Source of the DNA: Kiritimatiellia bacterium
GTDB lineage: Bacteria > Verrucomicrobiota > Kiritimatiellia > RFP12 > UBA1067
Assembly: GCA_017652705.1 (NCBI GenBank)
Contig: JAGCAM010000085.1
Span: 585-64,584 of the forward strand
DNA: 64,000 nucleotides
Direction: 5' to 3'
Below the pieces are notes generated by a model that saw only the letters and a program-made list of their open reading frames with translations, ran no database searches and was not told the origin of the DNA. A program made the position numbers and the translations under genes. Positions 3,084-20,139 of this stretch are shown here, piece by piece; the stretch's first letter is position 1, and every line of letters begins with the position of its first letter.

Positions 3084-4186
3084 TGTTCGTTGTCCTCCGC
3101 TTCTGAAGCTTCTGAATCCGCAGCCGGCAGGGTAAGCGTGAATACGCAGCCTTTCGGCCGGTTGGGGCGCACAGTCACGTCGCCGCCCATCGCCCTGGCG
3201 AAGTCGCGCGCCGTGCACAGTCCGATGCCGAAACCGCCCTTGCCGCTCTGGAGCGCGGTCTTTGCGCGGTAGTAGCGGTCGAACGCCCTGCGCATCTGCA
3301 CCGGGGTCATTCCGCCGCCTTCGTCGGCGAACGACACCGACGCCGCGGCGCCGTCAGAAAACGCCGCGACCCTGACCGCGCCGTACGGCGCGGCGTACTT
3401 AAGCGCGTTGCCGAAAAGGTTCCAGAGTATCTGCATGGTCATCACCTCGTCGGCGAAGACATACGCGGCCGGGGTGTTGAAATCCACCGCTCCGCCGTAC
3501 GAATCCTCATAATCGGCGGCGAACAGCCGGTAGGCTTCGCGGCACGCCGCGGACAGGTCGAACCGGACCGGTTGCGGCGGGCGCCGCCTGCCGCCGCGGC
3601 GGAGAAAATCCTTGATGTTGTTCACGATCAGCAGCATTCTTTCGTTCAGGCGCTTCGCCTCCGCGTCGTCCCGGCCGATCATCAGCCGCATGCCCACCAG
3701 CGGGGTCGTCAGGTCGTGCGCCGTCGCCGCCAGAAAATCGTCGCGCTCCCTCACGAAGCGCAGAAACCACAGCGAAGCCAGCGCCGAGAGCCAAGCCAGC
3801 GCCGCCGCTATCACCGCCGAACCGGCATACACGACCGGCGCGTAAGGAAATGGCTTCAGCGCCGCCGTTTCCACGGCCCGGCACTCCTTGTCCCCCGTCG
3901 AAACCCACACCGTCGCACGTTCGCCCTCCACCGCGTATCCCCAGGGCACTCCGCCGATCTTGCCTCGTTGCACCCATCCCTTTTTCTTCGATCCGGCGTA
4001 TCCGGCGGCCTCCGGCTTTTCCATCAGTTCTTCGGCGCGTTCGCGGTATTCCCGGCCGATGCGCACGACTTCGCCGTGCGCCGCGCGCGGCGTCCAGCCG
4101 ACGACGAACCATCCCCCGGCGACGGTTATCAGCAGCGCCGGCAGGCAGATCAGGGCAACGTAAAAAAATTTGAGCCGGCCCTTCAT
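3080..4186 (-). CDS. sensor histidine kinase (2 TM, periplasmic loop, HisKA + HATPase_c)
   Basis: H-box FLAATAHDLTTPL, N-box NLFGNALKYA, G1 DEGGGM, G2 GGFGIGL. Start at MKGRLKFFYV (cat 4184-4186) overlaps the stop of the upstream gene (ATGA). Confidence 0.85.
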   Translation of the reverse strand: MKGRLKFFYVALICLPALLITVAGGWFVVGWTPRAAHGEVVRIGREYRERAEELMEKPEAAGYAGSKKKGWVQRGKIGGVPWGYAVEGERATVWVSTGDKECRAVETAALKPFPYAPVVYAGSAVIAAALAWLSALASLWFLRFVRERDDFLAATAHDLTTPLVGMRLMIGRDDAEAKRLNERMLLIVNNIKDFLRRGGRRRPPQPVRFDLSAACREAYRLFAADYEDSYGGAVDFNTPAAYVFADEVMTMQILWNLFGNALKYAAPYGAVRVAAFSDGAAASVSFADEGGGMTPVQMRRAFDRYYRAKTALQSGKGGFGIGLCTARDFARAMGGDVTVRPNRPKGCVFTLTLPAADSEASEAEDNEQ

Positions 4187-6765
4187 CTCGGCATGCAAAG
4201 CGTCACCGGTCCGACCAGCCCCGCCTCGGCGAAAGGCGCGTCCGCCCCGGGCCCGCATATCGTCCACGTCGCCCGGTCGGCTTCCGGCTTGCCCGCGTCG
4301 ACGACCAGCTGGTTGTAGATGGTCGAAGTGACGGAGACTTCAACGACGTTTCTGCCGCGCCTGAGCAGCCTGGTCACGTCGCAGCCGAACGGTTTGCACC
4401 ACAGTTTCGCCGCGACCGTTCCGTTGACCTTGACTGTCGCCCAGTGGCAGACCCTGCCGAGATCAAGCGTCGCCGGCGAAACCTCGTCAAGGTCGAACTC
4501 AATGTCGTAAATCCGCTCCGTCGCCCCGATCGGATAGTCCTCCCTCGGTTTCGCCGCGAGCGCGGTCACGCGTGGCGGCTTTGCGCGCACCCGCGATTTC
4601 GGATCGCACGGCTTGGTCTCGCCGCTCACCGGGTCGAGCGACGTCCACGCCCCGCCCCGGCCGACGAGAAACTGCGATCTGCCGTCGAGTTCCGAAATGA
4701 AGAAAACGTCTTCGTCGCCGTCGCGCCGCTGGTACCACCACAGGTCTTTGCCGGTGCGCCCGATCGACTCGAGCGGCGACGGCCAGTCTGGTTTGAACGG
4801 CCCGCGGATGATCCGCGCGCCCTTCTTTTCGAGTTCGTCCAGCCTGGCCTTCGTCTCCGGCAGCAGAAAAGTTCCCGAAGGCAGCCACAACACGCGGTAG
4901 CTCATTCCGTCGGGGAACACTATGCGCCCGCCCCGCACGTCGGCGCGCGTCATCAGCGCGTCGTTGTTGAGATAGTCGTATTTGTAGCGGTTCTCGAAAA
5001 GATCGCCGCGCTCGCCCGGCTTGTGGTTAAAGTCGTCGCCCAGATACCGGAGAATGTCCACGACCGGCTTGCCGCGCTCGAGCTGCCGGCCGCACCGCTC
5101 GAGATAGGCGGTGAAGCACGGCATGTACTTCCACCACGGCTGGAGCCGCAGGAACGGCGTGCCGATGGCGTTGCCGAAACTGCTGCCCGGCGGTTTGCCG
5201 CCGACGACCGGGTTGTGCGTGAACGTATGGAAAACTATGTGGGTCAGCCCCCGCGCGAAGTGGCGGTTGGCGTTCTCCTTGAGCTCCTGCATCGACTCGT
5301 TGAAAGTGAGCTTGAAACTGGTGAACGATTCTGCGGTGACGCGTTTCTTGCCGTAGATGTGCGCCGCCGAAACGCACGGGCGAATCGGTTTGAAGTCATG
5401 AGACCCTACGAATCCTTCGTCGTTGCGGAACGGGCTCCAGAACTCGCACATCGGTTCGTCGGCGTACTTCCAGTACCGCAGGATGTCGCCGTTGATGACG
5501 TCGCCGAAAGCCGTTTCAAACTGGATGGTCATTCCGTTGCGGTGCGCGATGTCGGCCATCGCCCCGTAATAGTTGTCTTCGATAAGCCGCGAGCAGGTGC
5601 GCCGCCAGTCGAGCAGAAAGCGTTCCGTCGCGGCGGGGCTCACGAGAATGTAGCCGAAAAGAGCCGGCAGCCATTCTCGCAGTTCGTAGCCGTTCAGCCG
5701 CTTGAACTCAGACTCCATCTTCCAGGTCCAGCTCTGCACCGAACACTCCCAGCTGTCCACCGTCACCCCCTTCAGCATGCCGCCCTTGAGCGGACCGGCG
5801 GCGAGCTTGCCTATGTAGCCGCTCCAGTTGGCTTCGCAGCCGCGGCGGTCCATCTTGTCGCATTCCCAGCCAGTCGCTTCGCCGGGGGCCGGGCCGTTGA
5901 CGCGTTTGGCGTTGACGTGGCCGAAGACAAGGGTCTTTTTCAAATCGAAGTTCACCGGCGTGTCGTCGCGGGTCATCCTGAATTCGCGCAGCCCCAGCGC
6001 GGCCTTCGACTCCCAGTCGTCGAGAATGCCGGTCTGCCGCCCGAAAACCACCTTGACCTCCCTGGCGTCGCAGTGCCGGCTGTGCACTTCCGCGCGCAGC
6101 TTGTGCATCACCGGGTTTAAGCGCCGCGGCAGCACGAAAGTCATGCCGGCGGAGTCCTGCCACGCCCCCTGCGGACACCTCCGGCGGAAAACCTCCTTCC
6201 CGTCCTCGTAGATCAGCAGTTCCGCGTCGGGTTCATACGCCCAGTGGTGGCATATCTGCTGCGGATTCGGAAACGTCACAGAGCAGACCTGCTCGACCAG
6301 GGTTTCGCCGACCGGAAATGTCACCGCGCCGATTTCGCGGTAGTCGTCGTCCTTGTCCCACTTGGGTTCCTTGCCCGGCTCGAAGCACACGAGCTTGCGC
6401 ATCGCCCTTTCGACCGGCACCCACGGGCCCCCGCTCATCGACCAGCCAGGGCAGTTCTGCATCTTGAACGCGATGCCCCGCTTCGCGCACTCGCCCGCCA
6501 GAAACGCGACGAGGTCCTCCCACTTTTCGCTGAGGCACGGCATGGACTCTTTGACGCCCGGCCAGAGCGTTCCGCCCTTCCAGCCGCCGTGGAAGAAATG
6601 GACGCCGCCGATGCCGGCCTCCTTGATCGCGTCGAGATCCGCCACGATTCCTTCTTTGGAGGCGTTGCCGCCGATGAAATGAAACCATGCCTCGGGGGAG
6701 TATTCCGAAGCGGCGGCGGCCGCCGAACACGCGGCGAACGCCGCGGCGACTATCGTCTTTTTCAT
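4183..6765 (-). CDS. secreted glycoside hydrolase, GH106-like (alpha-L-rhamnosidase-type family)
   Basis: Signal peptide MKKTIVAAAFAACSAAAAA. The N-terminal AWFHFIGGNASKEGIVADLDAIKEAGIGGV matches the family signature as I recall it. GAGGG lies 6 nt before ATG 6765; an alternative start is 6777. Family assignment is from memory, not a search. Confidence 0.7.
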   Translation of the reverse strand: MKKTIVAAAFAACSAAAAASEYSPEAWFHFIGGNASKEGIVADLDAIKEAGIGGVHFFHGGWKGGTLWPGVKESMPCLSEKWEDLVAFLAGECAKRGIAFKMQNCPGWSMSGGPWVPVERAMRKLVCFEPGKEPKWDKDDDYREIGAVTFPVGETLVEQVCSVTFPNPQQICHHWAYEPDAELLIYEDGKEVFRRRCPQGAWQDSAGMTFVLPRRLNPVMHKLRAEVHSRHCDAREVKVVFGRQTGILDDWESKAALGLREFRMTRDDTPVNFDLKKTLVFGHVNAKRVNGPAPGEATGWECDKMDRRGCEANWSGYIGKLAAGPLKGGMLKGVTVDSWECSVQSWTWKMESEFKRLNGYELREWLPALFGYILVSPAATERFLLDWRRTCSRLIEDNYYGAMADIAHRNGMTIQFETAFGDVINGDILRYWKYADEPMCEFWSPFRNDEGFVGSHDFKPIRPCVSAAHIYGKKRVTAESFTSFKLTFNESMQELKENANRHFARGLTHIVFHTFTHNPVVGGKPPGSSFGNAIGTPFLRLQPWWKYMPCFTAYLERCGRQLERGKPVVDILRYLGDDFNHKPGERGDLFENRYKYDYLNNDALMTRADVRGGRIVFPDGMSYRVLWLPSGTFLLPETKARLDELEKKGARIIRGPFKPDWPSPLESIGRTGKDLWWYQRRDGDEDVFFISELDGRSQFLVGRGGAWTSLDPVSGETKPCDPKSRVRAKPPRVTALAAKPREDYPIGATERIYDIEFDLDEVSPATLDLGRVCHWATVKVNGTVAAKLWCKPFGCDVTRLLRRGRNVVEVSVTSTIYNQLVVDAGKPEADRATWTICGPGADAPFAEAGLVGPVTLCMPR

Positions 6766-8776: not shown

Positions 8777-11340
8777 TGCCGTTTCTTTTCTTCGGTCTCG
8801 AACTCGGGCCGCTTGCCCTTGTACCACCAGAACATGATCGGCGTCGCGATGAAGACCGACGAGAACGTGCCCGACACCACGCCGATCAGCATGATCAGCG
8901 CGAAGTCGAATATCGAACCGTCGCCGAACGCGAACAGCGCCAGCACCGCGAAGAAGGTCGTCACCGACGTGATCACCGTGCGCGAAAGGCACGCGTTGAC
9001 CGCCGCGTTGCAGAGATCGTAGAACGTCAGCCGCTTGTCGTGGCGCAGCATCTCGCGGATCCGGTCGAACACAACGACGGTGTCGTTGACCGAGTAGCCG
9101 ATGATCGTCAGCAGCGCCGTGATCACGATGAGCGACACCTGCCTGCCGCAGAGCGAAAACAGCCCCAGCGACATGAGCGCGTCGTGCGCCAGCGCCACGA
9201 TCGCCCCCAGCCCGAAACCGAACTGGAACCGGAACCCGACGTACGCGAGAATCGCCACGAGCGAGAACAGCACCGCGTACGTGCCCGACCGCTTCAGGTC
9301 CGCGCCTACCATCGAGCCGACCTCCTCGACCGACGCCGAGGTGAACCCCGCCTCGGGGAACTTATCCTGCAGCAGTTTCGTCACGTGCGCGCCGACGTCC
9401 TTGTCTTTCAGCGCCGAGCCCTTCTTCGTCTCGGCGGTCTCGCCGGTCTTCACCAGCAGCGTCGAATCGCCGACACCCTCCTGATACTGGATGACCGCCG
9501 CGTTGTCGAAGCCGTCCAGCGCCTTGCGGATGTCGGTCATCGCGGGTTTCGCGTCCTGCTTGAAGTTGTAGACGATCGAGGTGCCGCCCGTCAGGTCGAC
9601 CGAAAGCACCGACGCGCGGTTGTTCACGAACCGCACCGCGAAAACCGCGAGCGACAGCGCGATGACCGCGAACGACCAGCCGACGGTGTACTTCGTGGCC
9701 TTCATGAAGTCGTACTTCGGATTCTTGAAGACCTGCATCATCTTGAAGGGTTTCGCGCGCCCGGGGTCGACGCAGTGGTCGAAGACGAGCCGCGTCACCA
9801 CCACCGCGGTGAACATCGAAATCACGACGCCCGCCGTCAGCATGATCGCGAAGCCGCGCACCGGCCCGGTGCCCACGATGAAAAGGATGACGCCGGTTAT
9901 GATCGTCGTCAGGTTGGAGTCGAAAATCGCCGTGAACGCGCGCCCGTAGCCGTTGTACACCGCCTCGCCGGCCGTCCTGCCGGCGGCGAACTCTTCGCGG
10001 ATGCGCTCGAAAATCAGCACGTTCGCGTCCACCGCCATGCCGAGCGACAGCACGAGACCCGCGATGCCGGGCATCGTCAGCACCGGCAGTTGCATCGAGC
10101 CCCCGCCGCCCATCGAAGGATCGTGCGCGAAAACCCCCAGGAAGTTCGCCACGAACACGAGCGCCGTCGGCAGCAGCGCGATGTCGAGAAACAGCGCGAT
10201 GTCCGCCACGAGACCGGAACGCCAGTAATAAATGAACATGAACACCGCGATGAGGGCGAACCCGAGAACCGCCGCCGTCTTGCCCGCCGCGATCGCGTCT
10301 TCGCCGACCGTCGGCGCCACCGAAGTCTCCGCGAGAACCTTCATCGGCGCCGGCAGCGCGCCCGCGTTCAGCTCGTCTGCCAGCTTCTTGGCGCTTCTCG
10401 CGTCGAAGCGCCCCGTAATCTGGCCGGACGTGCCGATTTCGCTCTGGATGACCGGCGCGGATATGAGCTGGTCGTCGAGGATGATCGCCAGCTGGCGGCC
10501 GCGGTCGCTCGGGTTTTTGGGCCCGTGCGCCTTGTAGTTGCGCGTGAGCGTCGAAAACTTGCGCCCGCCCTCGGCCGACATCCTGAAACCGATCGAAAGA
10601 CCGCCCGACGTCTGGTCGCGCTCGACCATCGCCGAAACGAGATCTTCGCCCGTCACGCGCGGCTCCGTCGAACGCGCCACGAAATTCGGCGAATACGTGC
10701 CGTCCCCGTTGTCTTCAAGCATGAAACTGTAACGGGCGTCGGGCGTCTCGAACCGCGCCAGCCTCGCCGCGTACCCCTTGTTGGTGGACACATCCGCCCA
10801 GTTCTCCGCCCGCGCGTAGCCGTTGCCGCTCTTCTTGTAGCCCTCCGGCGCGATTTCCTTCGACAGCAGCTTCGCCACAAGCTGGTCGTTCTTCGGGTGC
10901 GTCAGCCGGAATTCAAGAAACGCCGCGTGCTGCAGCGACGCCTTAGCCTCCTTGCGCGTGCGCTCGTCGGCGCCGGGCAGCTGCACCAGCAGCCGGTGCC
11001 CCTTGCCCTTCATCCCCTGGATCACCGGCTCGTTGGTGCCCATCGCGTCGACACGCCGCCGGATAACCTGGATGATGCGGTCGTCGCAGCCCGCGAGAGT
11101 CTCCTCCATCTTCTTCTCGACCGCCCCGACCGTGTTGGTCAGACCGGGATTCGACGCGATTATCGACTCGCGCAGCTTATCTTCGTCCACCCCGAGGGTG
11201 AACGACGTGCCGCCGTTCAAATCCAGCCCAAGACGGATCTTCTCCGACGGCGGATTGCACACGTAGAATGATATGACGGCGATGAGCGCCAGAACCAACC
11301 ATTTCCACAAATTGTTGCGGCCAACAGAATCTTTAGACAT
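8773..11340 (-). CDS. secDF: protein translocase subunit SecDF (fused)
   Basis: 855 aa with two 6-TM blocks and a large periplasmic domain. SecD- and SecF-like TM motifs are present (LDLNGGTSF, GIAGLVLSLGMAVDANVLIFERIREE, YSVNDTVVVFDRIRE). Confidence 0.95.
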   Translation of the reverse strand: MSKDSVGRNNLWKWLVLALIAVISFYVCNPPSEKIRLGLDLNGGTSFTLGVDEDKLRESIIASNPGLTNTVGAVEKKMEETLAGCDDRIIQVIRRRVDAMGTNEPVIQGMKGKGHRLLVQLPGADERTRKEAKASLQHAAFLEFRLTHPKNDQLVAKLLSKEIAPEGYKKSGNGYARAENWADVSTNKGYAARLARFETPDARYSFMLEDNGDGTYSPNFVARSTEPRVTGEDLVSAMVERDQTSGGLSIGFRMSAEGGRKFSTLTRNYKAHGPKNPSDRGRQLAIILDDQLISAPVIQSEIGTSGQITGRFDARSAKKLADELNAGALPAPMKVLAETSVAPTVGEDAIAAGKTAAVLGFALIAVFMFIYYWRSGLVADIALFLDIALLPTALVFVANFLGVFAHDPSMGGGGSMQLPVLTMPGIAGLVLSLGMAVDANVLIFERIREEFAAGRTAGEAVYNGYGRAFTAIFDSNLTTIITGVILFIVGTGPVRGFAIMLTAGVVISMFTAVVVTRLVFDHCVDPGRAKPFKMMQVFKNPKYDFMKATKYTVGWSFAVIALSLAVFAVRFVNNRASVLSVDLTGGTSIVYNFKQDAKPAMTDIRKALDGFDNAAVIQYQEGVGDSTLLVKTGETAETKKGSALKDKDVGAHVTKLLQDKFPEAGFTSASVEEVGSMVGADLKRSGTYAVLFSLVAILAYVGFRFQFGFGLGAIVALAHDALMSLGLFSLCGRQVSLIVITALLTIIGYSVNDTVVVFDRIREMLRHDKRLTFYDLCNAAVNACLSRTVITSVTTFFAVLALFAFGDGSIFDFALIMLIGVVSGTFSSVFIATPIMFWWYKGKRPEFETEEKKRQ

Positions 11341-13066: not shown

Positions 13067-14176
13067 CTACAGCCGCGACTTGAAATCATCGTAGCCGAAG
13101 CGTTTTAAGACCTTTACTGATCCCAGGCGAGTTCGGAGCGCGATGGACGGCAGCGGCATGCCGTTGAATGTGTTGTTCTTCACCATCGTGTAGATCGCCA
13201 TGTCCTCGAAGACGAGTTCGTCCCCGACCTTGAGCTGACGCGCGAACGAATAGTCTCCGATTACGTCCCCCGCGAGGCAGGTCGGTCCACCAAGCCGGTA
13301 GGTGTACTTCTTCTCGCCCGGCTGGCCCGATCCCCTGAGCGGCGGACGGTACGGCATTTCGATAACATCCGGCATGTGGCACTCCGCCGATGCATCGAGA
13401 ATCGCAATCGGCATTCCGTAGTCGACGATCTCCCGCACCGTCGTCACCAGCGTCCCCGCATTTAGCGCAATCGCCTCGCCGGGCTCGAGATACACCTCAA
13501 GGTTGGGATGACGCCGACGGAAGTCCTTTAGCGTCTTCACCAGCAATTTGACGTCGTATCCCTTGCGGGTGATGTGGTGTCCGCCCCCGAAGTTCACCCA
13601 CTTCATCTGCGGCAGGAACTCGCCGAACTTCGCCTCGAACACTTCGAGCGTCCGCGCCAGCACGTCCGCACCCTGCTCGCACATGGTGTGGAAATGCAAT
13701 CCCTCCACGCCGCGCAAGTCGTCCGCCTTGAGGAATTCCCGCGGCACTCCCAACCGGGAGCCAGGCGCACACGGATTGTAGATGTCGTGCTCGATCTCGC
13801 TGTAGCCGGGATTCACCCGCAGTCCGAGGCTCGCCTTGCCACGGCAGACGCGCCGCGCAAGCGCGAGCTGCGGCAGCGAATTGAGGACGATGTGATCCGA
13901 ATACTTGAGGACTTCCCGCAGTTCCGACACCGTAAAGGCCGGATTGAACACATGGTTCTCCCGACCTGGCATCTCCTCCGCCGCGAGCCGCGCCTCGTAG
14001 ACGCCGCTGGCGGTGGTGCCGTCAAGGTGCTTGGCGACAAGCGGATAGGTCGCGTAGCACGAAAACGCCTTCTGCGCAAGGAGAATCTTCACCCCCGCGC
14101 GGCTGCGCACCGAGGCGAGCAGCTCGAGGTTGCGCCCGAGCAACGCCTCGTCGATCACGTAGTACGGGGTCTTCAC
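13067..14176 (-). CDS. nspC: carboxynorspermidine/carboxyspermidine decarboxylase
   Basis: VKTPYYVIDEALL...HFHTMCEQ...NFGGGHHIT...GGPTCLAGDVIGDY has typical CANSDC (alanine racemase-fold PLP decarboxylase) features. GTG start 14176 overlaps the upstream stop (GTGA). Confidence 0.9.
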   Translation of the reverse strand: MKTPYYVIDEALLGRNLELLASVRSRAGVKILLAQKAFSCYATYPLVAKHLDGTTASGVYEARLAAEEMPGRENHVFNPAFTVSELREVLKYSDHIVLNSLPQLALARRVCRGKASLGLRVNPGYSEIEHDIYNPCAPGSRLGVPREFLKADDLRGVEGLHFHTMCEQGADVLARTLEVFEAKFGEFLPQMKWVNFGGGHHITRKGYDVKLLVKTLKDFRRRHPNLEVYLEPGEAIALNAGTLVTTVREIVDYGMPIAILDASAECHMPDVIEMPYRPPLRGSGQPGEKKYTYRLGGPTCLAGDVIGDYSFARQLKVGDELVFEDMAIYTMVKNNTFNGMPLPSIALRTRLGSVKVLKRFGYDDFKSRL

Positions 14177-15516
14177 GGAACCTTCACCGGATCGAAGTTT
14201 TCCTTCCAGGGGAGTCCGCGGCGCTTCAGTTCCGCCATGAACGGATCGGGATCGAACTCCTCGCAGGTGTGGACGCCCTTCGCCGTCCACTTTCCGTCGA
14301 GGAACATCTTCGCGCCAATCATCGCGGGGACGCCGGTCGTGTAGCTGATCGCCTGCGAGCCGACTTCGCGGTAGCACTTCTGGTGGTCGCATACGTTGTA
14401 CACGTAGTAGTCCACCGTCTTTCCGTCCTTCTTGCCGTGGAAGATGCAGCCTATGTTCGTCTTGCCCTTGGTGCGCGGACCGAGCGACGCGGGATCGGGC
14501 AGCAGCGTCTTGAGGAATTCGATGGGGACGATCTTGTGCCCCTGGAAGTCGACGGGGTCGATACGCGTGAGCCCCACGTTCTCAAGGCACTTGAGGTGCG
14601 TGAGATAGCTCTGACCAAAGGTCATGAAGAAGCGGATGCGCTTGATGCCCTTCAAGTTGCAGCCGAGCGACTCGAGCTCCTCGTGATGGAGCAGGTACAT
14701 GTCCTTCTTGCCGACCTTGTCGAACACGTATTCGCGCTTGATGGCCATCGGGTCCGTCTCCACCCACCAGCCCTTGTCGAACGCTTTTTTGTATTTGACC
14801 TTCACGCCGTGGGCGTCCTTCGACTTCTTCCCCTTCTCGCTCGTCCAATACGAGCCCTTCGCGGCGACTTCGCGGAGGTTGATCTCGGGGTTGAAGTTCG
14901 TGGCGAAGGGATAGCCGTGGTCCCCGCCGTTACAGTCGAGGATGTCCAGCGTCTCAATGGTGTCGAAGTAGTGCTTCTGCGCGTAGGCGGAGAACACCTG
15001 GGTGACGCCGGGGTCGAATCCGCAGCCGAGGATCGCGGTGAGCCCTGCCTGCTCGAACTTCTTGCGGTACGCCCACTGCCACGAATACTCGAAGTGCGCC
15101 TCGTCCGGCGGCTCGTAATTCGCGGTGTCGAGGTAGCTTACGCCGGCCTCGAGGCAGGCGTCCATGATCGCGAGGTCCTGATAGGGCAGCGCGATGTTCA
15201 TCACCAGGTCAGGCTTGAACTTGCGGATGAGCGCCACGAGGCGCGGCGTATCCATCGCGTCGATCTGGGCGGTCGAAACACGGGTTGAGATGTTGCGGGG
15301 TTGAGATGTTGAGATACGTGTCGAGGCGTTGAGATGCTGAGAAATCGAGTTGGGGGAGTACCACGGGCGGGACATGATGTCCTTGCGGATGGCCTTGCAC
15401 TTTGATTCAGTGCGCGAGGCGATCAGCAGGTGCCCGAAGGTCTCCGGGTCCTGGCACATCTTCGCGGCGGCGACGCCGGCGACACCGCCGGCACCGATGA
15501 GGAGCACTCTGCTCAT
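14173..15516 (-). CDS. carboxynorspermidine/carboxyspermidine dehydrogenase (saccharopine dehydrogenase family), carrying a repeat-derived in-frame insert
   Basis: MSRVLLIGAGGVAGV Rossmann start, then YLDTANYEPPDEAHFEYSWQWAYRKKF, GCGFDPGVT and ISYTTGVPA. The SPNSISQHLNASTRISTSQPRNISTRVST segment is encoded by the CTCAAC repeat. Confidence 0.9.
   Translation of the reverse strand: MSRVLLIGAGGVAGVAAAKMCQDPETFGHLLIASRTESKCKAIRKDIMSRPWYSPNSISQHLNASTRISTSQPRNISTRVSTAQIDAMDTPRLVALIRKFKPDLVMNIALPYQDLAIMDACLEAGVSYLDTANYEPPDEAHFEYSWQWAYRKKFEQAGLTAILGCGFDPGVTQVFSAYAQKHYFDTIETLDILDCNGGDHGYPFATNFNPEINLREVAAKGSYWTSEKGKKSKDAHGVKVKYKKAFDKGWWVETDPMAIKREYVFDKVGKKDMYLLHHEELESLGCNLKGIKRIRFFMTFGQSYLTHLKCLENVGLTRIDPVDFQGHKIVPIEFLKTLLPDPASLGPRTKGKTNIGCIFHGKKDGKTVDYYVYNVCDHQKCYREVGSQAISYTTGVPAMIGAKMFLDGKWTAKGVHTCEEFDPDPFMAELKRRGLPWKENFDPVKVP
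15281..15357. repeat. GTTGAGATG short-repeat cluster (sense CTCAAC arm) inside the dehydrogenase CDS
   Basis: The plus strand reads GGGTTGAGATGTTGCGGGGTTGAGATGTTGAGATACGTGTCGAGGCGTTGAGATGCTGAGAAATCGAGTTGGGGG. Confidence 0.85.
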
Positions 15517-15539
15517 GGGCGTGAATCCTTTCTTTTGTT

Positions 15540-15588
15540 GTTGACAACGACCTGAATTCCGTACTCCACCCGGAGCAGTTCAAAGGCG
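15540..15588 (-). promoter_or_regulatory. conserved 5' leader element, copy A (upstream of the dehydrogenase gene)
   Basis: Sense CGCCTTTGAACTGCTCCGGGTGGAGTACGGAATTCAGGTCGTTGTCAAC begins a few nt after the TATAAT box. It is near-identical to copy B at 19916-19966. Confidence 0.55.
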
Positions 15589-15593
15589 AGTGT

Positions 15594-15602
15594 ATTATAT
15601 CA
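15594..15602 (-). promoter_or_regulatory. extended -10 box TGATATAAT for the dehydrogenase-nspC unit
   Basis: The minus strand reads AATTTGATATAATACAC about 80 nt upstream of ATG 15516. Confidence 0.5.
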
Positions 15603-15694
15603 AATTCTCGTCCCGCTCATCTGGGAACTCTGACGTTTCGCGTAATCTCGAAGGCGGGATTCTGCTGCCGTGTCATGCCTCGGCGACGGCGTTA

Positions 15695-16246
15695 TCATCG
15701 CGCCAGCTTCACTTTCAATATCCAGCCGCCGCCGCCGGGCTTGCGGCCGGCCGGGTCGGGATGCGTCCAGTGGACAACACCGCCGCGCTCGTTGTCGATG
15801 TACTCGCCTCTGAAGATCACCTCGTCGCCCTGCTTCACGTCTTTGAGCCGCTCCCACTTGTCGATATTGTTGGCGATGAGAACCGTGCGTCCGGCCGGAT
15901 CGGCGACCAGGAGACGCTGGTGGCGCGGCGGATTGATGTCGTCCGGCAGCACCTTCTTGACAGTTCCCCGGCCCTCGATCCAGCTGCGGTTCTTAAAATC
16001 AGCGAAGAAGCACGGATCGGGAATCGTTGCCGTAATCTTCCTCACCCCGCGAACCACGGTGTTCGTTCTCGTTACCGGCGGCGTTCCCCGCACCGGTCTC
16101 CGGCCCGACAACCTCGCCGACGCGTCTTCACGTCCGCGCGCTTCCGTCGGATAGCCGTTGCGAAAGCTCCAATGATGCGTCACCGCGCCAATGCCCATCA
16201 CCAGCGCGAAAGCCGCCCACGCAAAAATCCAGGTCTTCGTTTTCAT
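15695..16246 (-). CDS. DUF3465-family membrane-anchored protein
   Basis: An N-terminal TM helix, then GTVKKVLPDD...HQRLLV...VLIANNID...GDEVIFRGEYIDNERGGVVHWTH. This matches the DUF3465 pattern as I recall it. Confidence 0.7.
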   Translation of the reverse strand: MKTKTWIFAWAAFALVMGIGAVTHHWSFRNGYPTEARGREDASARLSGRRPVRGTPPVTRTNTVVRGVRKITATIPDPCFFADFKNRSWIEGRGTVKKVLPDDINPPRHQRLLVADPAGRTVLIANNIDKWERLKDVKQGDEVIFRGEYIDNERGGVVHWTHPDPAGRKPGGGGWILKVKLAR

Positions 16247-16253
16247 GCCGTCT

Positions 16254-16262
16254 ATTATAGCA
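16254..16262 (-). promoter_or_regulatory. extended -10 box TGCTATAAT only 7 nt before the DUF3465 ATG (possible leaderless transcript)
   Basis: The minus strand reads TGAATTGACACGAACTGTGCTATAATAGACGGCATG within the 30-nt speB/DUF3465 gap. Confidence 0.35.
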
Positions 16263-16276
16263 CAGTTCGTGTCAAT

Positions 16277-17236
16277 TCATGCGGGCACCGATTTATCGCA
16301 CTGATCATTCTGAGGAAACCAACGTCCCGCCGCACCGGACAGGGCAAGGAGGCACTCGCGGAGGAACTTGCAGGCGAGGGCCGTGGAACGTCCCGATGGA
16401 TCGAGCGAGGGATTGAGTTCCACATTGTCGAGCGCGACCACATGGAAACGCGTGAGAATGTCCGTGATCGCGCAACGCAGTTCGTCGTAGTGCAGTCCGC
16501 CCGCCTCCTGGGTGCCCGTGCCCGGGAAGTCTGCGGGATCGAGCACGTCGAGGTCGATGGTGAGATAGACGGGGGTTGAGACGCTGAGCCGCTGAGGGGT
16601 TGAGACATCGCAACAACTCAACTTCTCAGCACTGTTCCAACTCAACTTCTCAACACCTTTACAAGTAAACTTCTCGGCAATCACATGCCCCGCCTTCATG
16701 AAGGCGAACTCTTCGCGGGTGCCGGAGCGGATTCCGAACTGGAAGATACGGCCGTCGCCGAGGAGGTCATAGCATCGCCGCATGACGGTGGCGTGCGAAA
16801 GCGTCTCGCCGAGGTATTCCTCTCGGAGGTCGGCGTGGGCGTCGAAGTGGATGATGCGCAGGCCGGGGAACCGCTTGAACGCGGCGCGGACCGCCCCGAG
16901 GGTGACGAGGTGCTCGCCGCCGAGCATGAACGGAATCTTGCCGTCGTCCAGTATCTCGCCTGCACGCGTCTCAATGGCCTCGAGCTGTCTCGCCGGAGAG
17001 CCGAACGGAAACTCCAAGTCTCCTGAATCGTAGAACGGGAAGTCTTCGAGGTCACGGTCTTGATACGGCGAGTACGTCTCGATGCCGTAGCTCTCGGCAC
17101 GAATCGCCGCAGGGCCGAACCGCGTTCCAGGACGGTAAGACGTCGTGGCATCCGCCCCCGCGCCGAACAGCACGACCTTCGCCCGATCATAGTCGTACGT
17201 CGCCCCGATAAAAACATTCCTGTTCGCTTTTTCCAT
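16277..17236 (-). CDS. speB: agmatinase-family ureohydrolase (agmatinase or aminopropylagmatine ureohydrolase) with palindromic repeat insert
   Basis: GGEHLVT, HFDAHADL and LTIDLDVLDPADFPGTGTQEAGG are arginase-fold Mn-binding motifs. ATG 17236 has AGGAG 5 nt upstream; an alternative GTG is at 17242. Confidence 0.9.
   Translation of the reverse strand: MEKANRNVFIGATYDYDRAKVVLFGAGADATTSYRPGTRFGPAAIRAESYGIETYSPYQDRDLEDFPFYDSGDLEFPFGSPARQLEAIETRAGEILDDGKIPFMLGGEHLVTLGAVRAAFKRFPGLRIIHFDAHADLREEYLGETLSHATVMRRCYDLLGDGRIFQFGIRSGTREEFAFMKAGHVIAEKFTCKGVEKLSWNSAEKLSCCDVSTPQRLSVSTPVYLTIDLDVLDPADFPGTGTQEAGGLHYDELRCAITDILTRFHVVALDNVELNPSLDPSGRSTALACKFLRECLLALSGAAGRWFPQNDQCDKSVPA
16570..16677. repeat. imperfect palindromic GTTGAG/CTCAAC element inserted in frame in speB
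   Basis: The plus strand reads GGGGGTTGAGACGCTGAGCCGCTGAGGGGTTGAGAC-atcgcaaca-ACTCAACTTCTCAGCACTGTTCCAACTCAACTTCTCAACACC. It encodes about 35 extra residues (AEKFTCKGVEKLSWNSAEKLSCCDVSTPQRLSVSTP) just before the conserved VYLTIDLDVLDP. Confidence 0.8.
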
Positions 17237-17239
17237 TTT

Positions 17240-17271
17240 CACTCCTCAGCCACTCAACGCCTCAACCTCTC
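17240..17271. repeat. CTCAAC repeat arm in the speE-speB spacer (sense GTTGAG; supplies the speB SD)
   Basis: Sense strand reads TGA-gatgacGAGAGGTTGAGGCGTTGAGTGGCTGAGGAGTGaaaATG. Confidence 0.8.
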
Positions 17272-17277
17272 GTCATC

Positions 17278-18141
17278 TCACTTGGTCTCCTCTTCCCTGA
17301 GGATGTCAAGCACGTAGTTGGGCAGGGCGAAGGCGCCGCGGTGGAGGGCGGTGTTGTAGTAGCGCGTGGTAATGCGCAGCTTGTTCCAACGCGCCTCGTC
17401 AAGGTTGCCGATGGGATGGTACTTCTTTGAGGCGAAGCCGAAGAGCCAGTGCCCCGAAGGATAGCTGGGGATGTGACACTGGTAGACGGTGGAGACGGGG
17501 AACTCCACCGCGATATGGCGGTGGGCATCGCGCACGGAACGCTGGTGCGCCGCGTAGAACGGCGACTCGTGCTGGTTGATGAGGATGCCGTCGTCGCGCA
17601 GCGCCTTGTAGCAGGTGCCGTAGAACTCGCGGGTGAAGAAGCCTTCGGCGGGTCCGTAGGGATCGGACGAGTCGACGATGATGAGGTCGTACTCGGCTTT
17701 CTTGCCGCGCACGTATCTGAGGCCCTCCTCGAACCACACCTTCACCCGCCTGTCCTTGAGCTTCGAGGACGTGAACGGCAGAAACTTCTTCGCCAGCAGC
17801 ACAACGTGCTTGTCCACCTCCACAAGGTCGATGGACTCTATGGCGCGGTACTTGACGAGTTCGCGCACCGTGCCGCCGTCGCCGCCGCCGATCACCAGCA
17901 CGTTCTTGACCCGCGGGTGCACGGCCATCGGCACGTGGGTGATCATCTCGTGGTAGATGAATTCGTCCTTTTCGGTGATCATCAGTCCGCCATCCAGAAC
18001 CAGCACGCGGCCGTAGGCGGGCGTGTCGAAGATGTCAATCTGCTGTACAGGGCTTTTTCTGGAAACGAGCTGCTCGCTCACCTTCATTGAGAAGCGCACG
18101 TCGCGCGTATGTTCGTCGGTGTACCAGAGTTCGGTTTGCAT
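17278..18141 (-). CDS. speE: spermidine synthase / aminopropyltransferase
   Basis: VLVIGGGDGGTVREL, DLIIVDSSDPYGPAEGFFT and YPSGHW motifs; 287 aa. Confidence 0.92.
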   Translation of the reverse strand: MQTELWYTDEHTRDVRFSMKVSEQLVSRKSPVQQIDIFDTPAYGRVLVLDGGLMITEKDEFIYHEMITHVPMAVHPRVKNVLVIGGGDGGTVRELVKYRAIESIDLVEVDKHVVLLAKKFLPFTSSKLKDRRVKVWFEEGLRYVRGKKAEYDLIIVDSSDPYGPAEGFFTREFYGTCYKALRDDGILINQHESPFYAAHQRSVRDAHRHIAVEFPVSTVYQCHIPSYPSGHWLFGFASKKYHPIGNLDEARWNKLRITTRYYNTALHRGAFALPNYVLDILREEETK

Positions 18142-18189
18142 GGGAGGTTGAGTGGTTGAGTTGTTGAGCGGTTGAGGGGTTGAGGGGGG
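18142..18189. repeat. five tandem GTTGAG units (sense CTCAAC arm) between the 4-helix-bundle ORF and speE
   Basis: The plus strand reads GGGAGGTTGAGTGGTTGAGTTGTTGAGCGGTTGAGGGGTTGAGGGGGG. It exactly fills the gap between the speE ATG and the TAA of the small ORF. Confidence 0.9.
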
Positions 18190-18390
18190 TTACACTTTTT
18201 TCTGGCGGAACGGTTCGCCGGAAAGTGATTGCATGAGGCGAAAGAGCTTAACCTGCACACGTTCAAGATCGCCATATATAGCACCAAAGTCCGACGAAAA
18301 CAAGCGAGCAGCGGTCAAGGCGTAGATCTTTTTAACTATCGCCCGTCCGTCCTTCCATATCTCAATATCTTCAAACTTTCTGAATGCCAT
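18190..18390 (-). CDS. four-helix-bundle protein (23S rRNA intervening-sequence protein / Avd-like family), shortened 66-aa copy
   Basis: MAFRKFEDIEIWKDGRAIVKKIYALTA resembles the family N-terminal helix (F.DL.VW..A..L...IY). Family members as I recall are about 115-125 aa, so this copy looks internally deleted. GC is about 46% by my count against GC-rich neighbours. SD GAGGAGA is upstream. Confidence 0.5.
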   Translation of the reverse strand: MAFRKFEDIEIWKDGRAIVKKIYALTAARLFSSDFGAIYGDLERVQVKLFRLMQSLSGEPFRQKKV

Positions 18391-18413
18391 TTCTCTCCTC
18401 AACTTCTCAACGC
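18391..18413. repeat. CTCAAC repeat arm (sense GTTGAG) between the speA stop and the 4-helix-bundle ORF
   Basis: Sense strand reads TAG-GCGTTGAGAAGTTGAGGAGAGAA-ATG. It is an inverted repeat of 18142-18189. Confidence 0.85.
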
Positions 18414-19895
18414 CTACGCAAGCACATTGATGTATTCGAGCGACATGTCCTCGGTGCCGGTCATGAAGCAACCCTTCTCCTTCGCGAAGAGAATGTGCGC
18501 CAGCACGTCCGGGGTAATCCGTTCGCCGGGGGCGACGATCGGGATGCCGGGCGGGTAGCTCATCACGAACTCGCCGGCGATCTGTCCCGTGGACTCCCGC
18601 ATCGCCACGCGGCGCTTTTTCGCGTAGAACGCCTCCTGCGGGGGCATGGCGATGACGGGGTCAATGTACTCGTGGTCGAAGAGCCCGGCGGGGCTCTTCT
18701 CGCGCTGGCGCTTGATCTCCTCGAGGGCGGAGATAAGGCGCTCGACGTCCATCATCCGGTCGCCGTTGGAGATGATTGCGAGCAGGTTGCCGATGTCGCC
18801 GAACTCGATCTGGATGCCGTAGTCGTCGCGGAGGTAGTCGTAGACCTCGATGCCGGCGAGCCCGATGTCGCGGGTGTGGACGGAGAGCTTCGTGCGGTCG
18901 AAGGCGAAGACGGTGTCGCCGTTGACGAGCTCGGGGCCGAACGCGTGGTACCCGCCGAGCTCGTTGATTTCGTCGCGCGCGTAGTCCGCGAAGTCCATCG
19001 TCTGCTGGTACATCTGCTTCCCCCGGAAGAACAGATTGCGGCGCGCGATGTCCAGCGACGAAAGCAGCAGGTAGGAGGCGGAGGTCGACTGTGTGAGGGT
19101 GATGACCTGGCGGACGTAGTCCGGATTCACCGGGCGGCGCGTGAGCAGGACCGAGCTCTGCGTTAGCGAGCCGCCGGTCTTGTGGATGGACGCCGCGGAC
19201 ATGTCGCACCCGGCGGCCATCGCGGAGACCGGGAGCTCGCCGTGGAAATAGAAGTGGGTGCCGTGCGCCTCGTCCGCCAGCACCGTCATACCCGCCTCGT
19301 GGGCGATTTTGACAATCTCCACGAGGTTGGAGCAGATGCCGTAGTAGGTGGGGTTGTTGACCAGGACCGCCCTGGCGGACGGATGCTCGGCGACTGCCTT
19401 GCGGACGTCGGCGACGCTCATTCCGAGCGGGATGCCGAGCTTCCGGTTGATGCCGGGGTTGATGTACACCGGAACCGCCCCGCTGACGACCAGCGCGTTG
19501 ATGGCGCTGCGGTGGACGTTGCGCGGCATGATTATCTCGTCGCCGCTCTTGACGGTGGCCATGATCATCGCCTGCACCGCCGAGGTGGTGCCGTTGACCA
19601 TGAAGAACGCGTCGTCGGAACCGAACGCCTCCGCCGTCAGCTCCTGCGCCTCGCGGATGACGGACACCGGATGCCCGAGGTTGTCGAGGGGTTTCATGGA
19701 GTTTACGTCCATCGCCATGGCCCGTGCGCCGAGATACTCGGTAAGCTCGGGATTCCCCCGACCGCCCTTGTGGGCGGGGACGTCGAAATGCGCGAGGCGG
19801 TTGATGCGCTGCGCATCAAGAGCCTCCGCCAGCGGCACGCGCCGCTGGCGCGCCGATACCTCGTTTTCCGCTTTCGCGGATACAGAACGTGCCAT
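18414..19895 (-). CDS. speA: PLP-dependent arginine decarboxylase (Orn/Lys/Arg decarboxylase family, Bacillus SpeA-type)
   Basis: 493 aa; FMVNGTTSAVQAMI, ADEAHG and SIHKTGGSLTQSS (PLP lysine region). The operon context with speB favours arginine as substrate. Confidence 0.85.
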   Translation of the reverse strand: MARSVSAKAENEVSARQRRVPLAEALDAQRINRLAHFDVPAHKGGRGNPELTEYLGARAMAMDVNSMKPLDNLGHPVSVIREAQELTAEAFGSDDAFFMVNGTTSAVQAMIMATVKSGDEIIMPRNVHRSAINALVVSGAVPVYINPGINRKLGIPLGMSVADVRKAVAEHPSARAVLVNNPTYYGICSNLVEIVKIAHEAGMTVLADEAHGTHFYFHGELPVSAMAAGCDMSAASIHKTGGSLTQSSVLLTRRPVNPDYVRQVITLTQSTSASYLLLSSLDIARRNLFFRGKQMYQQTMDFADYARDEINELGGYHAFGPELVNGDTVFAFDRTKLSVHTRDIGLAGIEVYDYLRDDYGIQIEFGDIGNLLAIISNGDRMMDVERLISALEEIKRQREKSPAGLFDHEYIDPVIAMPPQEAFYAKKRRVAMRESTGQIAGEFVMSYPPGIPIVAPGERITPDVLAHILFAKEKGCFMTGTEDMSLEYINVLA

Positions 19896-19915
19896 TCAAT
19901 CAACCCGTTGAGTAA

Positions 19916-19966
19916 GTTAACAACAGCCCGAATTCCATACTCCCCAGAGGAGCAGTTCAAGGGTCG
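19916..19966 (-). promoter_or_regulatory. conserved 5' leader element, copy B (upstream of speA)
   Basis: Sense CGACCCTTGAACTGCTCCTCTGGGGAGTATGGAATTCGGGCTGTTGTTAAC directly follows the -10-like box. It is a paralogue of 15540-15588. Confidence 0.55.
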
Positions 19967-19970
19967 CGTA

Positions 19971-19979
19971 AGAATATCA
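19971..19979 (-). promoter_or_regulatory. candidate -10 region TGATATTCT for speA
   Basis: The minus strand reads TTGTCA-N18-TATTCT, aligned with the TGATATAAT family. Confidence 0.4.
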
Positions 19980-20031
19980 TAATCAGCCGTCTCTTGACAA
20001 GGGGGTAATTTTATTTGCCGCGTAGTTTTCA

Positions 20032-20073
20032 TTGCGGAAGTAAACGAACCAGATCGTGCATTCACTTCCGCAA
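20032..20073. repeat. 10-bp perfect inverted repeat TTGCGGAAGT...ACTTCCGCAA (22-nt spacer)
   Basis: Read directly at 20032-20041 and 20064-20073. Confidence 0.8.
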
Positions 20074-20102: not shown

Positions 20103-20139
20103 GCCACCCTTATCCCGGATTTTCCGGGATAAGGGTGGC
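20103..20139. repeat. perfect 17-bp stem / 3-nt loop hairpin
   Basis: GCCACCCTTATCCCGGA-ttt-TCCGGGATAAGGGTGGC. No flanking T/A run on either strand, so it is not a classical terminator. Confidence 0.9.

Follow-up and report, generated by a model that had tools for sequence, protein, structure and literature searches.

How might a bacterium that encodes two routes to spermidine-type polyamines control both of them together? The question is raised by a stretch of 64,000 nucleotides from a Kiritimatiellia bacterium (contig JAGCAM010000085.1 of assembly GCA_017652705.1), referred to here as the window and meaning the whole stretch of DNA that was analysed, which is assigned by its protein homologues to the uncultured gut and rumen Kiritimatiellae. 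Two transcription units of the window, one headed by speA and the other by the gene for carboxynorspermidine synthase/dehydrogenase (CANSDH) with nspC, open with the same short leader element. A sequence-only reading had described near-identical copies of it right after the −10 boxes of both units, and had proposed a candidate polyamine-responsive RNA or operator. The element is real and conserved, and constitutes a leader motif not described before and a candidate cis-regulatory RNA of 5′ untranslated regions (UTRs); narrow in phylogenetic range, it shows an excellent association with its genes and weak structural statistics. On balance, it probably acts as a transcribed RNA in the post-transcriptional control of both operons, and it is a credible candidate for an RNA switch coordinating polyamine production.

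The element is 39–40 nt long and is present in two copies on the minus strand, each placed between a promoter and a start codon. The features of the two leaders are as follows.

15549–15587, minus strand: element copy A (covariance-model hit of 56.8 bits, alignment, pair counts)
15584–15579 with 15556–15551, minus strand: outer helix of copy A
15578 with 15560, minus strand: C-G pair of copy A, next to the inner stem formed by 15577–15572 with 15567–15562
15571–15568, minus strand: loop GGGU of copy A, whose bulges are C15561 and GAA (15559–15557)
15594–15599, minus strand: TATAAT, an extended −10 box (TG two bases further upstream) of the CANSDH-nspC unit, read from the sequence
15514–15530, minus strand: Shine–Dalgarno (SD) sequence AAGGA (15530–15526) and ATG (15516–15514) of CANSDH, read from the sequence
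19925–19964, minus strand: element copy B (covariance-model hit of 63.3 bits, alignment)
19961–19956 with 19932–19927, minus strand: outer helix of copy B
19955 with 19936, minus strand: C-G pair of copy B, next to the inner stem formed by 19954–19949 with 19943–19938
19948–19944, minus strand: loop UCUGG of copy B, whose bulges are U19937 and GAA (19935–19933)
19971–20000, minus strand: promoter of the speA unit, TTGTCA (20000–19995), an 18-nt spacer, and TATTCT (19976–19971), with TG (promoter scan)

Read in the direction of the genes, copy A (15587 to 15551) is G15587-CCTTTGAAC-TGCTCC-GGGT-GGAGTA-C-G-GAA-TTCAGG, or G-CCUUUGAA-C-UGCUCC-GGGU-GGAGUA-C-G-GAA-UUCAGG as RNA. Copy B (19964 to 19927) is A-CCCTTGAAC-TGCTCC-TCTGG-GGAGTA-T-G-GAA-TTCGGG, starting at A19964, and A-CCCUUGAA-C-UGCUCC-UCUGG-GGAGUA-U-G-GAA-UUCGGG as RNA. 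Copy A begins 7 nt past TATAAT (15599–15594), with 34 nt separating its end from the CANSDH ATG (15516); copy B begins 7 nt past TATTCT, with 31 nt separating its end from the speA ATG (19895). A 31-nt pattern covering the element gave no match in 100 shuffles. With filters off, the next-best covariance-model hit in the whole window scored 11.7 bits, and no third copy was found in the 64 kb. The near-identity of the two copies and their position are thereby confirmed. The sequences around them had been called unrelated, and this is borne out, since BLAST of 600 nt round each copy aligned the two halves of the element only.

The search for further instances that had been suggested was productive. 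Scanning one genome for each GTDB species with a sequence pattern returned 22 true matches in 18 species-level metagenome-assembled genomes (MAGs) of Kiritimatiellia or "Verrucomicrobia" from cattle, horse, buffalo, and human gut, together with one chance match, lacking the stem, in a Terriglobia genome; further copies were found in metagenome and ENA contigs. Every true match is followed, 31–45 nt downstream, by the start codon of a SpeA-type or CANSDH gene, and upstream of every one lies a TATAAT-like hexamer, in many cases TGn-extended. Between this hexamer and the element there are 7–9 nt in 20 of the 22; the exceptions are L112, with 11 nt, and L015, with 14 nt (L-numbered names denote relatives' loci compared with the window). 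In the window and the relatives' loci, the element was found only ahead of speA-speE-speB and CANSDH(-nspC) operons, which is the association with a single pathway looked for in a riboswitch. Covariance-model scores are bimodal, at 57–65 bits or in the noise with nothing between, and no locus has more than two copies; as far as can be seen, the regulon is therefore exactly the two polyamine operons. A 21-bit hit in L004 was gone once filters were off. When a metagenome scan was run with the inner hairpin unconstrained, the matches listed were mostly chance matches in unrelated coding DNA, and among them were one added variant (GGAGCA) and no alternative inner stems.

Relatives that carry the genes in other arrangements are informative as to what the element belongs to. 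It was not found in L005, L151, and L152, Kiritimatiellia whose CANSDH is 75%–80% identical to that of the window. Among the SpeA homologues listed at an identity of at least 85%, it is absent from L153, L154, L155, and L156, whose SpeA proteins are 85%–89% identical to the window SpeA. L153 (GCA_045627925.1, 9001–15680) has a single operon, speA-speE-SBP(potD-like)-speB-CANSDH-nspC, with TATAAT only 18 nt ahead of the ATG, and offers a natural 'no-leader' comparison strain; in L154, speA follows a helicase gene, and in L155 and L156 it overlaps pta. As relatives with the genes fused into other operons are without it, the element is an accessory leader module tied to stand-alone promoters. No diverged version was seen in the CANSDH homologues L005, L151, and L152 or in the SpeA homologues L153–L156, from which the element is simply absent; there are therefore no distant copies from which covariation could be drawn. 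L005 also contains intergenic arrays of 8-nt repeats (GGAATTAT/GGAATTGT/GGGATTAT; 4185–4270 and 11244–11297) that resemble the GGAATT core.

Conservation forms an island. Across an alignment of 20 distinct element sequences, 35 of 40 columns are at least 90% identical, while promoter spacers and the remaining leader diverge freely between species. The apical loop is exceptional, being 3, 4, or 5 nt long and of any sequence: UCG, UUG, UCC, UUGG, or UCUGG before speA, and GGGU, AGGU, or NNNGU before CANSDH. Loop type clusters with the operon and not with the genome, which indicates that the two copies probably go back to an old duplication and have since been maintained separately, rather than being kept alike by gene conversion. 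In the best register, an outer helix of 6 bp leads past the GAA bulge to a C-G pair, which a single Y bulge separates from an inner stem of 6 bp; across these 13 pairs, 99.6% of stem cells are paired. Alignment and pair counts thus bear out the earlier description of an inner hairpin whose loop differs between the copies and of an outer helix whose changes are compatible with wobble pairing. By contrast, the GTTGNNAAC palindrome that had been counted as part of the motif lies outside what is conserved, since relatives have lost or altered it. Changes in the stem are confined to C-G to U·G (L008 and L023), G·U to G-C (the L058 group), and U-A to U·G together with U·G to C-G (window A and L001 A). 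Two bulges occur in the hairpin, along with two GGA motifs within 12 nt (GGAGUAYGGAA), motifs of the sort found in CsrA/RsmA-type binding sites. Readings of the element as a K-turn, a pseudoknot, or a tRNA/T-box structure were set aside, as the motifs that they require are absent from the sequence.

Evidence on transcription comes from orthologous leaders in two relatives (L075 and L010), as no RNA run was found to contain the window's own sequence. The CANSDH gene and leader of L075 (element at 4724–4762, minus strand) are covered by exact-match contigs of four rumen metatranscriptomes. These contigs end at 4702, 4736, 4739, and 4753, none continues further upstream in any of the four runs, and positions 4754–5287 have zero depth. 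This shows the element to be transcribed; a transcript 5′ end at or near its first base is supported, albeit not proven. For the speA leader of L010, three other RNA runs contain the element at a depth like that of the coding sequence (CDS); among the strains in these runs, similarity ends exactly at the 5′ edge of the element, and indels occur in the loop. Rumen RNA runs gave no coverage of L013.

As RNA, the element would be the 5′-terminal part of two mRNAs, a hairpin of 39–40 nt that would mark both polyamine operons for common post-transcriptional control. The likeliest mode would be control of translation initiation and/or of 5′-end-dependent mRNA decay. The hairpin would compete with the pairing of its own arms (CUGCUCC and GGAGUAYGGAAUUC) to the SD–AUG region or to the first ~45 nt of the CDS, and an effector tied to polyamine status, either a bound polyamine or an RNA-binding protein, would shift the balance. 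A switch of this kind, in which the hairpin is set against pairing to the ribosome-binding site (RBS) or CDS, is the most likely mode suggested by the fold models. Polyamine feedback would be the simplest logic for such control because the two operons are two routes to spermidine-type polyamines; the gene context points to a possible response to polyamines or agmatine. As neither window leader has a terminator-like site between element and ATG, transcription attenuation is unlikely.

When full leaders are modelled together with 36–45 nt of CDS, the arms of the element usually pair downstream and not with each other. In speA leaders and one group of CANSDH leaders, CUGCUCC is predicted to pair with GGAGCAG, and GAGUAUGG with CCGUAC or UCAUGCUC, in the early CDS. 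Elsewhere, GGAG...GGAAUUC is predicted to pair with the SD–AUG spacer, for example with GGAAUCCACUCC-AUG in L004 and, in window A, with GGAUUC of the CANSDH SD–ATG region, which is able to pair with GAAUUC of the element. Forcing the hairpin raises the unpaired fraction of the SD–AUG region in 28 of 30 leaders. Duplexes between element and RBS or CDS are on average 1 standard deviation better than dinucleotide shuffles (mean z −1.0), and in 24 of 26 leaders they are in the top third of CDS windows. Two further hairpins lie close by at the start of the speA message.

19905–19926, minus strand: predicted hairpin CUGUUG/CAACGG right after copy B, beside the weak speA SD (constrained folds)
19867–19880, minus strand: hairpin UCCGC-GAAA-GCGGA in speA codons 6–10, with CCUGC-NNNN-GCAGG and variable tetraloops in relatives

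Analogous SD-containing hairpins are predicted after the element in other speA leaders. In the hairpin of codons 6–10, two pairs show compensatory double changes and 93.8% of cells are paired, with the encoded amino acids not being conserved. These compensatory pairs are independent evidence for selection on RNA structure at the start of the speA mRNA.

Several observations weigh against a regulatory RNA hairpin. Covariation in relatives, which had been named as a check on the element, is not significant, as the preferred register has no pair changed on both sides. In an alternative outer register (CCC/GGG), the two changes of window A and L001 A become one compensatory C-G to U-A event; shuffles nonetheless equal the observed covariation score, neither register passes the shuffle control, and there is therefore no statistical covariation. 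The folding energy of the isolated element is unremarkable (z +0.6 to −1.2), and its near-invariant stem sequences would fit DNA recognition too. Within full leaders, the hairpin is 5–19 kcal/mol less stable than alternative folds. Complementarity to the RBS or CDS is uneven, with z below −1 in only 13 of 30 leaders, and is weak or missing for window copy B and for the L058 group and L149. Some L010 contigs extend 15–255 nt upstream of the element through the −10 boxes, which indicates DNA carry-over or read-through and leaves the start site unproven. The proposal of a polyamine-responsive RNA or operator therefore stands in part: the element is shared by both units, transcribed, and exclusive to these genes, with RNA favoured, but significant covariation is lacking.

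A more specific form of the RNA hypothesis is that the element constitutes a new, very small (~40 nt) riboswitch class, in which a metabolite of the polyamine pathway (spermidine, norspermidine, putrescine, or agmatine) would bind at the bulged hairpin and would shut off translation or trigger decay for both spermidine-synthesis routes. This is possible, but we consider it rather unlikely. An RNA of 40 nt is directly testable in vitro, and even with a protein as its effector the element would delimit a polyamine regulon and give a way of finding the regulator.

Alternatively, the element could work as DNA, with a repressor sitting on the double strand from +1 to ~+40 of both promoters and blocking RNA polymerase at high polyamine levels. 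In favour of such an operator, 20 of 22 matches keep a near-constant distance to the −10 box, the stems are retained in sequence and not in pairing alone, the element contains the palindromic pieces CTCC/GGAG and GAATTC, and a histidine kinase and an OmpR-type regulator are encoded directly upstream of the CANSDH leader in L004 and L009. However, the distances of 11 nt and 14 nt in L112 and L015 depart from this spacing, and no regulator gene is consistently linked to the element among the loci compared. The fixed half-site spacing and symmetry of a dyad operator are likewise not found: the spacer between the conserved halves is 3, 4, or 5 bp and thus changes by up to 2 bp, which would rotate half-sites by up to 70 degrees, and dyad symmetry is poor, with asymmetric insertions of 3 nt and 1 nt and three G·T positions. 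As RNA, the latter are asymmetric bulges and three G·U positions, which would be mismatches in a DNA dyad, and the element always has the same orientation relative to its gene. The variable spacer, the asymmetric bulges, the G·U positions, and the fixed orientation make RNA the favoured reading, and repressor binding to DNA is considered distinctly unlikely. In 19 of 20 sequences, the sense strand folds more favourably than the antisense strand, as is expected from the three G·U pairs.

5′-terminal hairpins are a known stabilising device, and the element could be a plain stem-loop that protects both mRNAs from 5′-end-dependent RNases without sensing anything. Its helix starts 0–3 nt from the predicted 5′ end, and RNA contigs end inside it, both of which agree with this idea. 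A generic stabiliser, however, requires pairing only, yet the bulges, the G·U pairs, and nearly all stem bases are invariant amid scrambled UTRs, and the element is limited to exactly the two polyamine operons. Protection without sensing is accordingly given only a slim chance.

The leader could also act through a peptide. An AUG inside GGAGUAUGGAAUUC would open an upstream open reading frame (uORF) for a leader peptide (MEFGLL...), whose polyamine-sensitive translation would gate the main open reading frame (ORF); in speA leaders, the AUG in GGAGUAUGG opens MEFGLL(F/L)T. The variable sites of speA leaders, CT[G/A] TT[G/A] TT[C/A] ACT, all fall at third codon positions, the uORF stop is often 4–17 nt ahead of the speA AUG, and polyamine-sensing uORFs are known in other systems (the odc1 motif, PMC8632094). 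Against this, window A, L001 A, and L112 have ACG in place of the AUG, uORFs before CANSDH differ in length (6 to more than 25 codons) and share no conserved peptide, and two speA uORFs (L013 and L028) enter speA out of frame. Moreover, GGAG lies just 1 nt from the AUG, too close for a Shine–Dalgarno sequence, and the AUG is buried in the hairpin, so control by a leader peptide is very improbable. That the element is a functionless remnant of a recent local duplication, a mobile element, or a repeat, as two same-strand copies 4.4 kb apart might suggest, is effectively refuted by the unrelated flanks, by the orthologous conservation of both copies across many species while adjacent non-coding DNA diverged, and by the lack of copies elsewhere in the window or loci.

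The genes downstream of the two leaders place the element in the pathway.

18414–19895, minus strand: speA, fold-I Orn/Lys/Arg decarboxylase, 493 aa (NCBIfam and Pfam OKR_DC_1 hits)
17278–18141, minus strand: speE, polyamine aminopropyltransferase (NF002010, 369.7 bits)
16277–17242, minus strand: speB, agmatinase (TIGR01230, 238 bits)
15695–16246, minus strand: DUF3465 protein, the last gene ahead of the CANSDH promoter (ORF list; Pfam DUF3465 annotation on the L001 orthologue)
14173–15516, minus strand: CANSDH, 447 aa (NCBIfam NF043000, E 2.5e-107)
13067–14176, minus strand: nspC, carboxynorspermidine decarboxylase (TIGR01047, 470 bits, above cut-off; gene calls in L001)

The speA unit thus runs from speA through speE and speB to the DUF3465 gene, and in the other unit the GTG start of nspC overlaps the CANSDH stop. 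Between 13067 and 19895, the window encodes both the aminopropyltransferase route (speE) and the carboxy(nor)spermidine route (CANSDH/nspC). The fold-I decarboxylase is read as an arginine decarboxylase, probably SpeA of the Bacillus type, because an agmatinase is encoded in the same operon. The homologues of CANSDH are Kiritimatiellae proteins of the saccharopine dehydrogenase family. At residues ~58–80 (window 15284–15315), the window CANSDH has an 18-aa low-complexity insertion (…SISQHLNASTRISTSQPRNISTRVS…) made of GTTGAGAT-like 8-nt repeats; in relatives, whose proteins are 426–476 aa long, insertions are shorter or different at this site and at a second one. The space between speB and the CANSDH leader, filled by the DUF3465 gene in the window and L001, is occupied in L004 (6813–7870) and in L009 by genes for an OmpR-type response regulator and a short HisKA protein. 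Some 140 nt upstream of the speA promoter lies an inverted repeat with perfectly matching 17-bp arms 3 nt apart (GCCACCCTTATCCCGGA/TCCGGGATAAGGGTGGC; window 20103–20139), present once in the window, not followed by a T-run, and without conservation in L001; it may serve as an operator or mark the end of a neighbouring gene's transcript. A second inverted repeat, of 18 bp and imperfect, is found nearby (window 20032–20073).

How does the element compare with known systems? That it corresponds to no known riboswitch class was upheld: Rfam 15 gave no match at gathering score or at E values up to 10 for 141-nt and 4.8-kb stretches, with noise only (drum, bxd_7, and snoRNA fragments). No full-text paper joining Kiritimatiellia with riboswitches was found in the literature. 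Validated polyamine-sensing RNAs are almost absent, and ldcC is still an orphan. A compact, strongly conserved leader common to the arginine-decarboxylase and carboxy(nor)spermidine routes would show how the abundant, uncultured Kiritimatiellia of gut and rumen coordinate both pathways.

By description, the closest analogue is the ldcC RNA motif, an orphan bulged hairpin with many invariant nucleotides that occurs in 5′ UTRs of arginine, ornithine, and SAM decarboxylase genes and of potA; it has been linked by proposal to polyamine homeostasis and is known from Firmicutes and two Spirochaetes (PMC5737381). No follow-up study of it was found in the literature. The present element is also a bulged hairpin with many invariant nucleotides ahead of a fold-I decarboxylase gene. 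It differs in that all of its hits are in gut MAGs labelled Kiritimatiellia or Verrucomicrobia, in heading a CANSDH operon as well, in its place at the very 5′ end, and in having no evident pseudoknot partner. The Rfam 15 scan gave no covariance-model match to ldcC, on the assumption that this release includes the family.

The odc1 (uORF-25-1) or speF-type leader of Alphaproteobacteria combines a pseudoknot with a uORF of 11 codons, fixed in length and sequence (PMC8632094). In it, RNA structure hides the RBS of a polyamine decarboxylase gene. The element likewise precedes such a gene, may affect access to the RBS, and can open a short uORF, but this uORF is neither fixed nor always there. Polyamines have been described as binding to bulged RNA, in the case of the oppA bulge as cited in PMC10853860, and to the GGA-rich RNAs RsmY and RsmZ (PMC13382137). 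The element shares bulges and GGA motifs with these RNAs, and a spermidine-driven structural change with RNase-mediated decay would give feedback; they are, however, not leaders of polyamine biosynthesis genes and have no sequence family in common with it, so the resemblance may serve as a lead and not as a test.

The only riboswitch demonstrated to sense a polyamine is the spermidine riboswitch, a rare SAM-I variant of Firmicutes with an aptamer of ~100 nt and a four-stem junction, which acts through transcription termination (PMC10853860). It acts on genes of polyamine biosynthesis from their 5′ UTRs, as the element would, and negative feedback would be expected of both; in contrast, the element is a single hairpin of 39–40 nt with no terminator and no match to the SAM family or clan. 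Were direct riboswitch action to hold true, the Kiritimatiellia leader would represent the second known class of polyamine riboswitch and the first outside the Firmicutes and the SAM-I fold.

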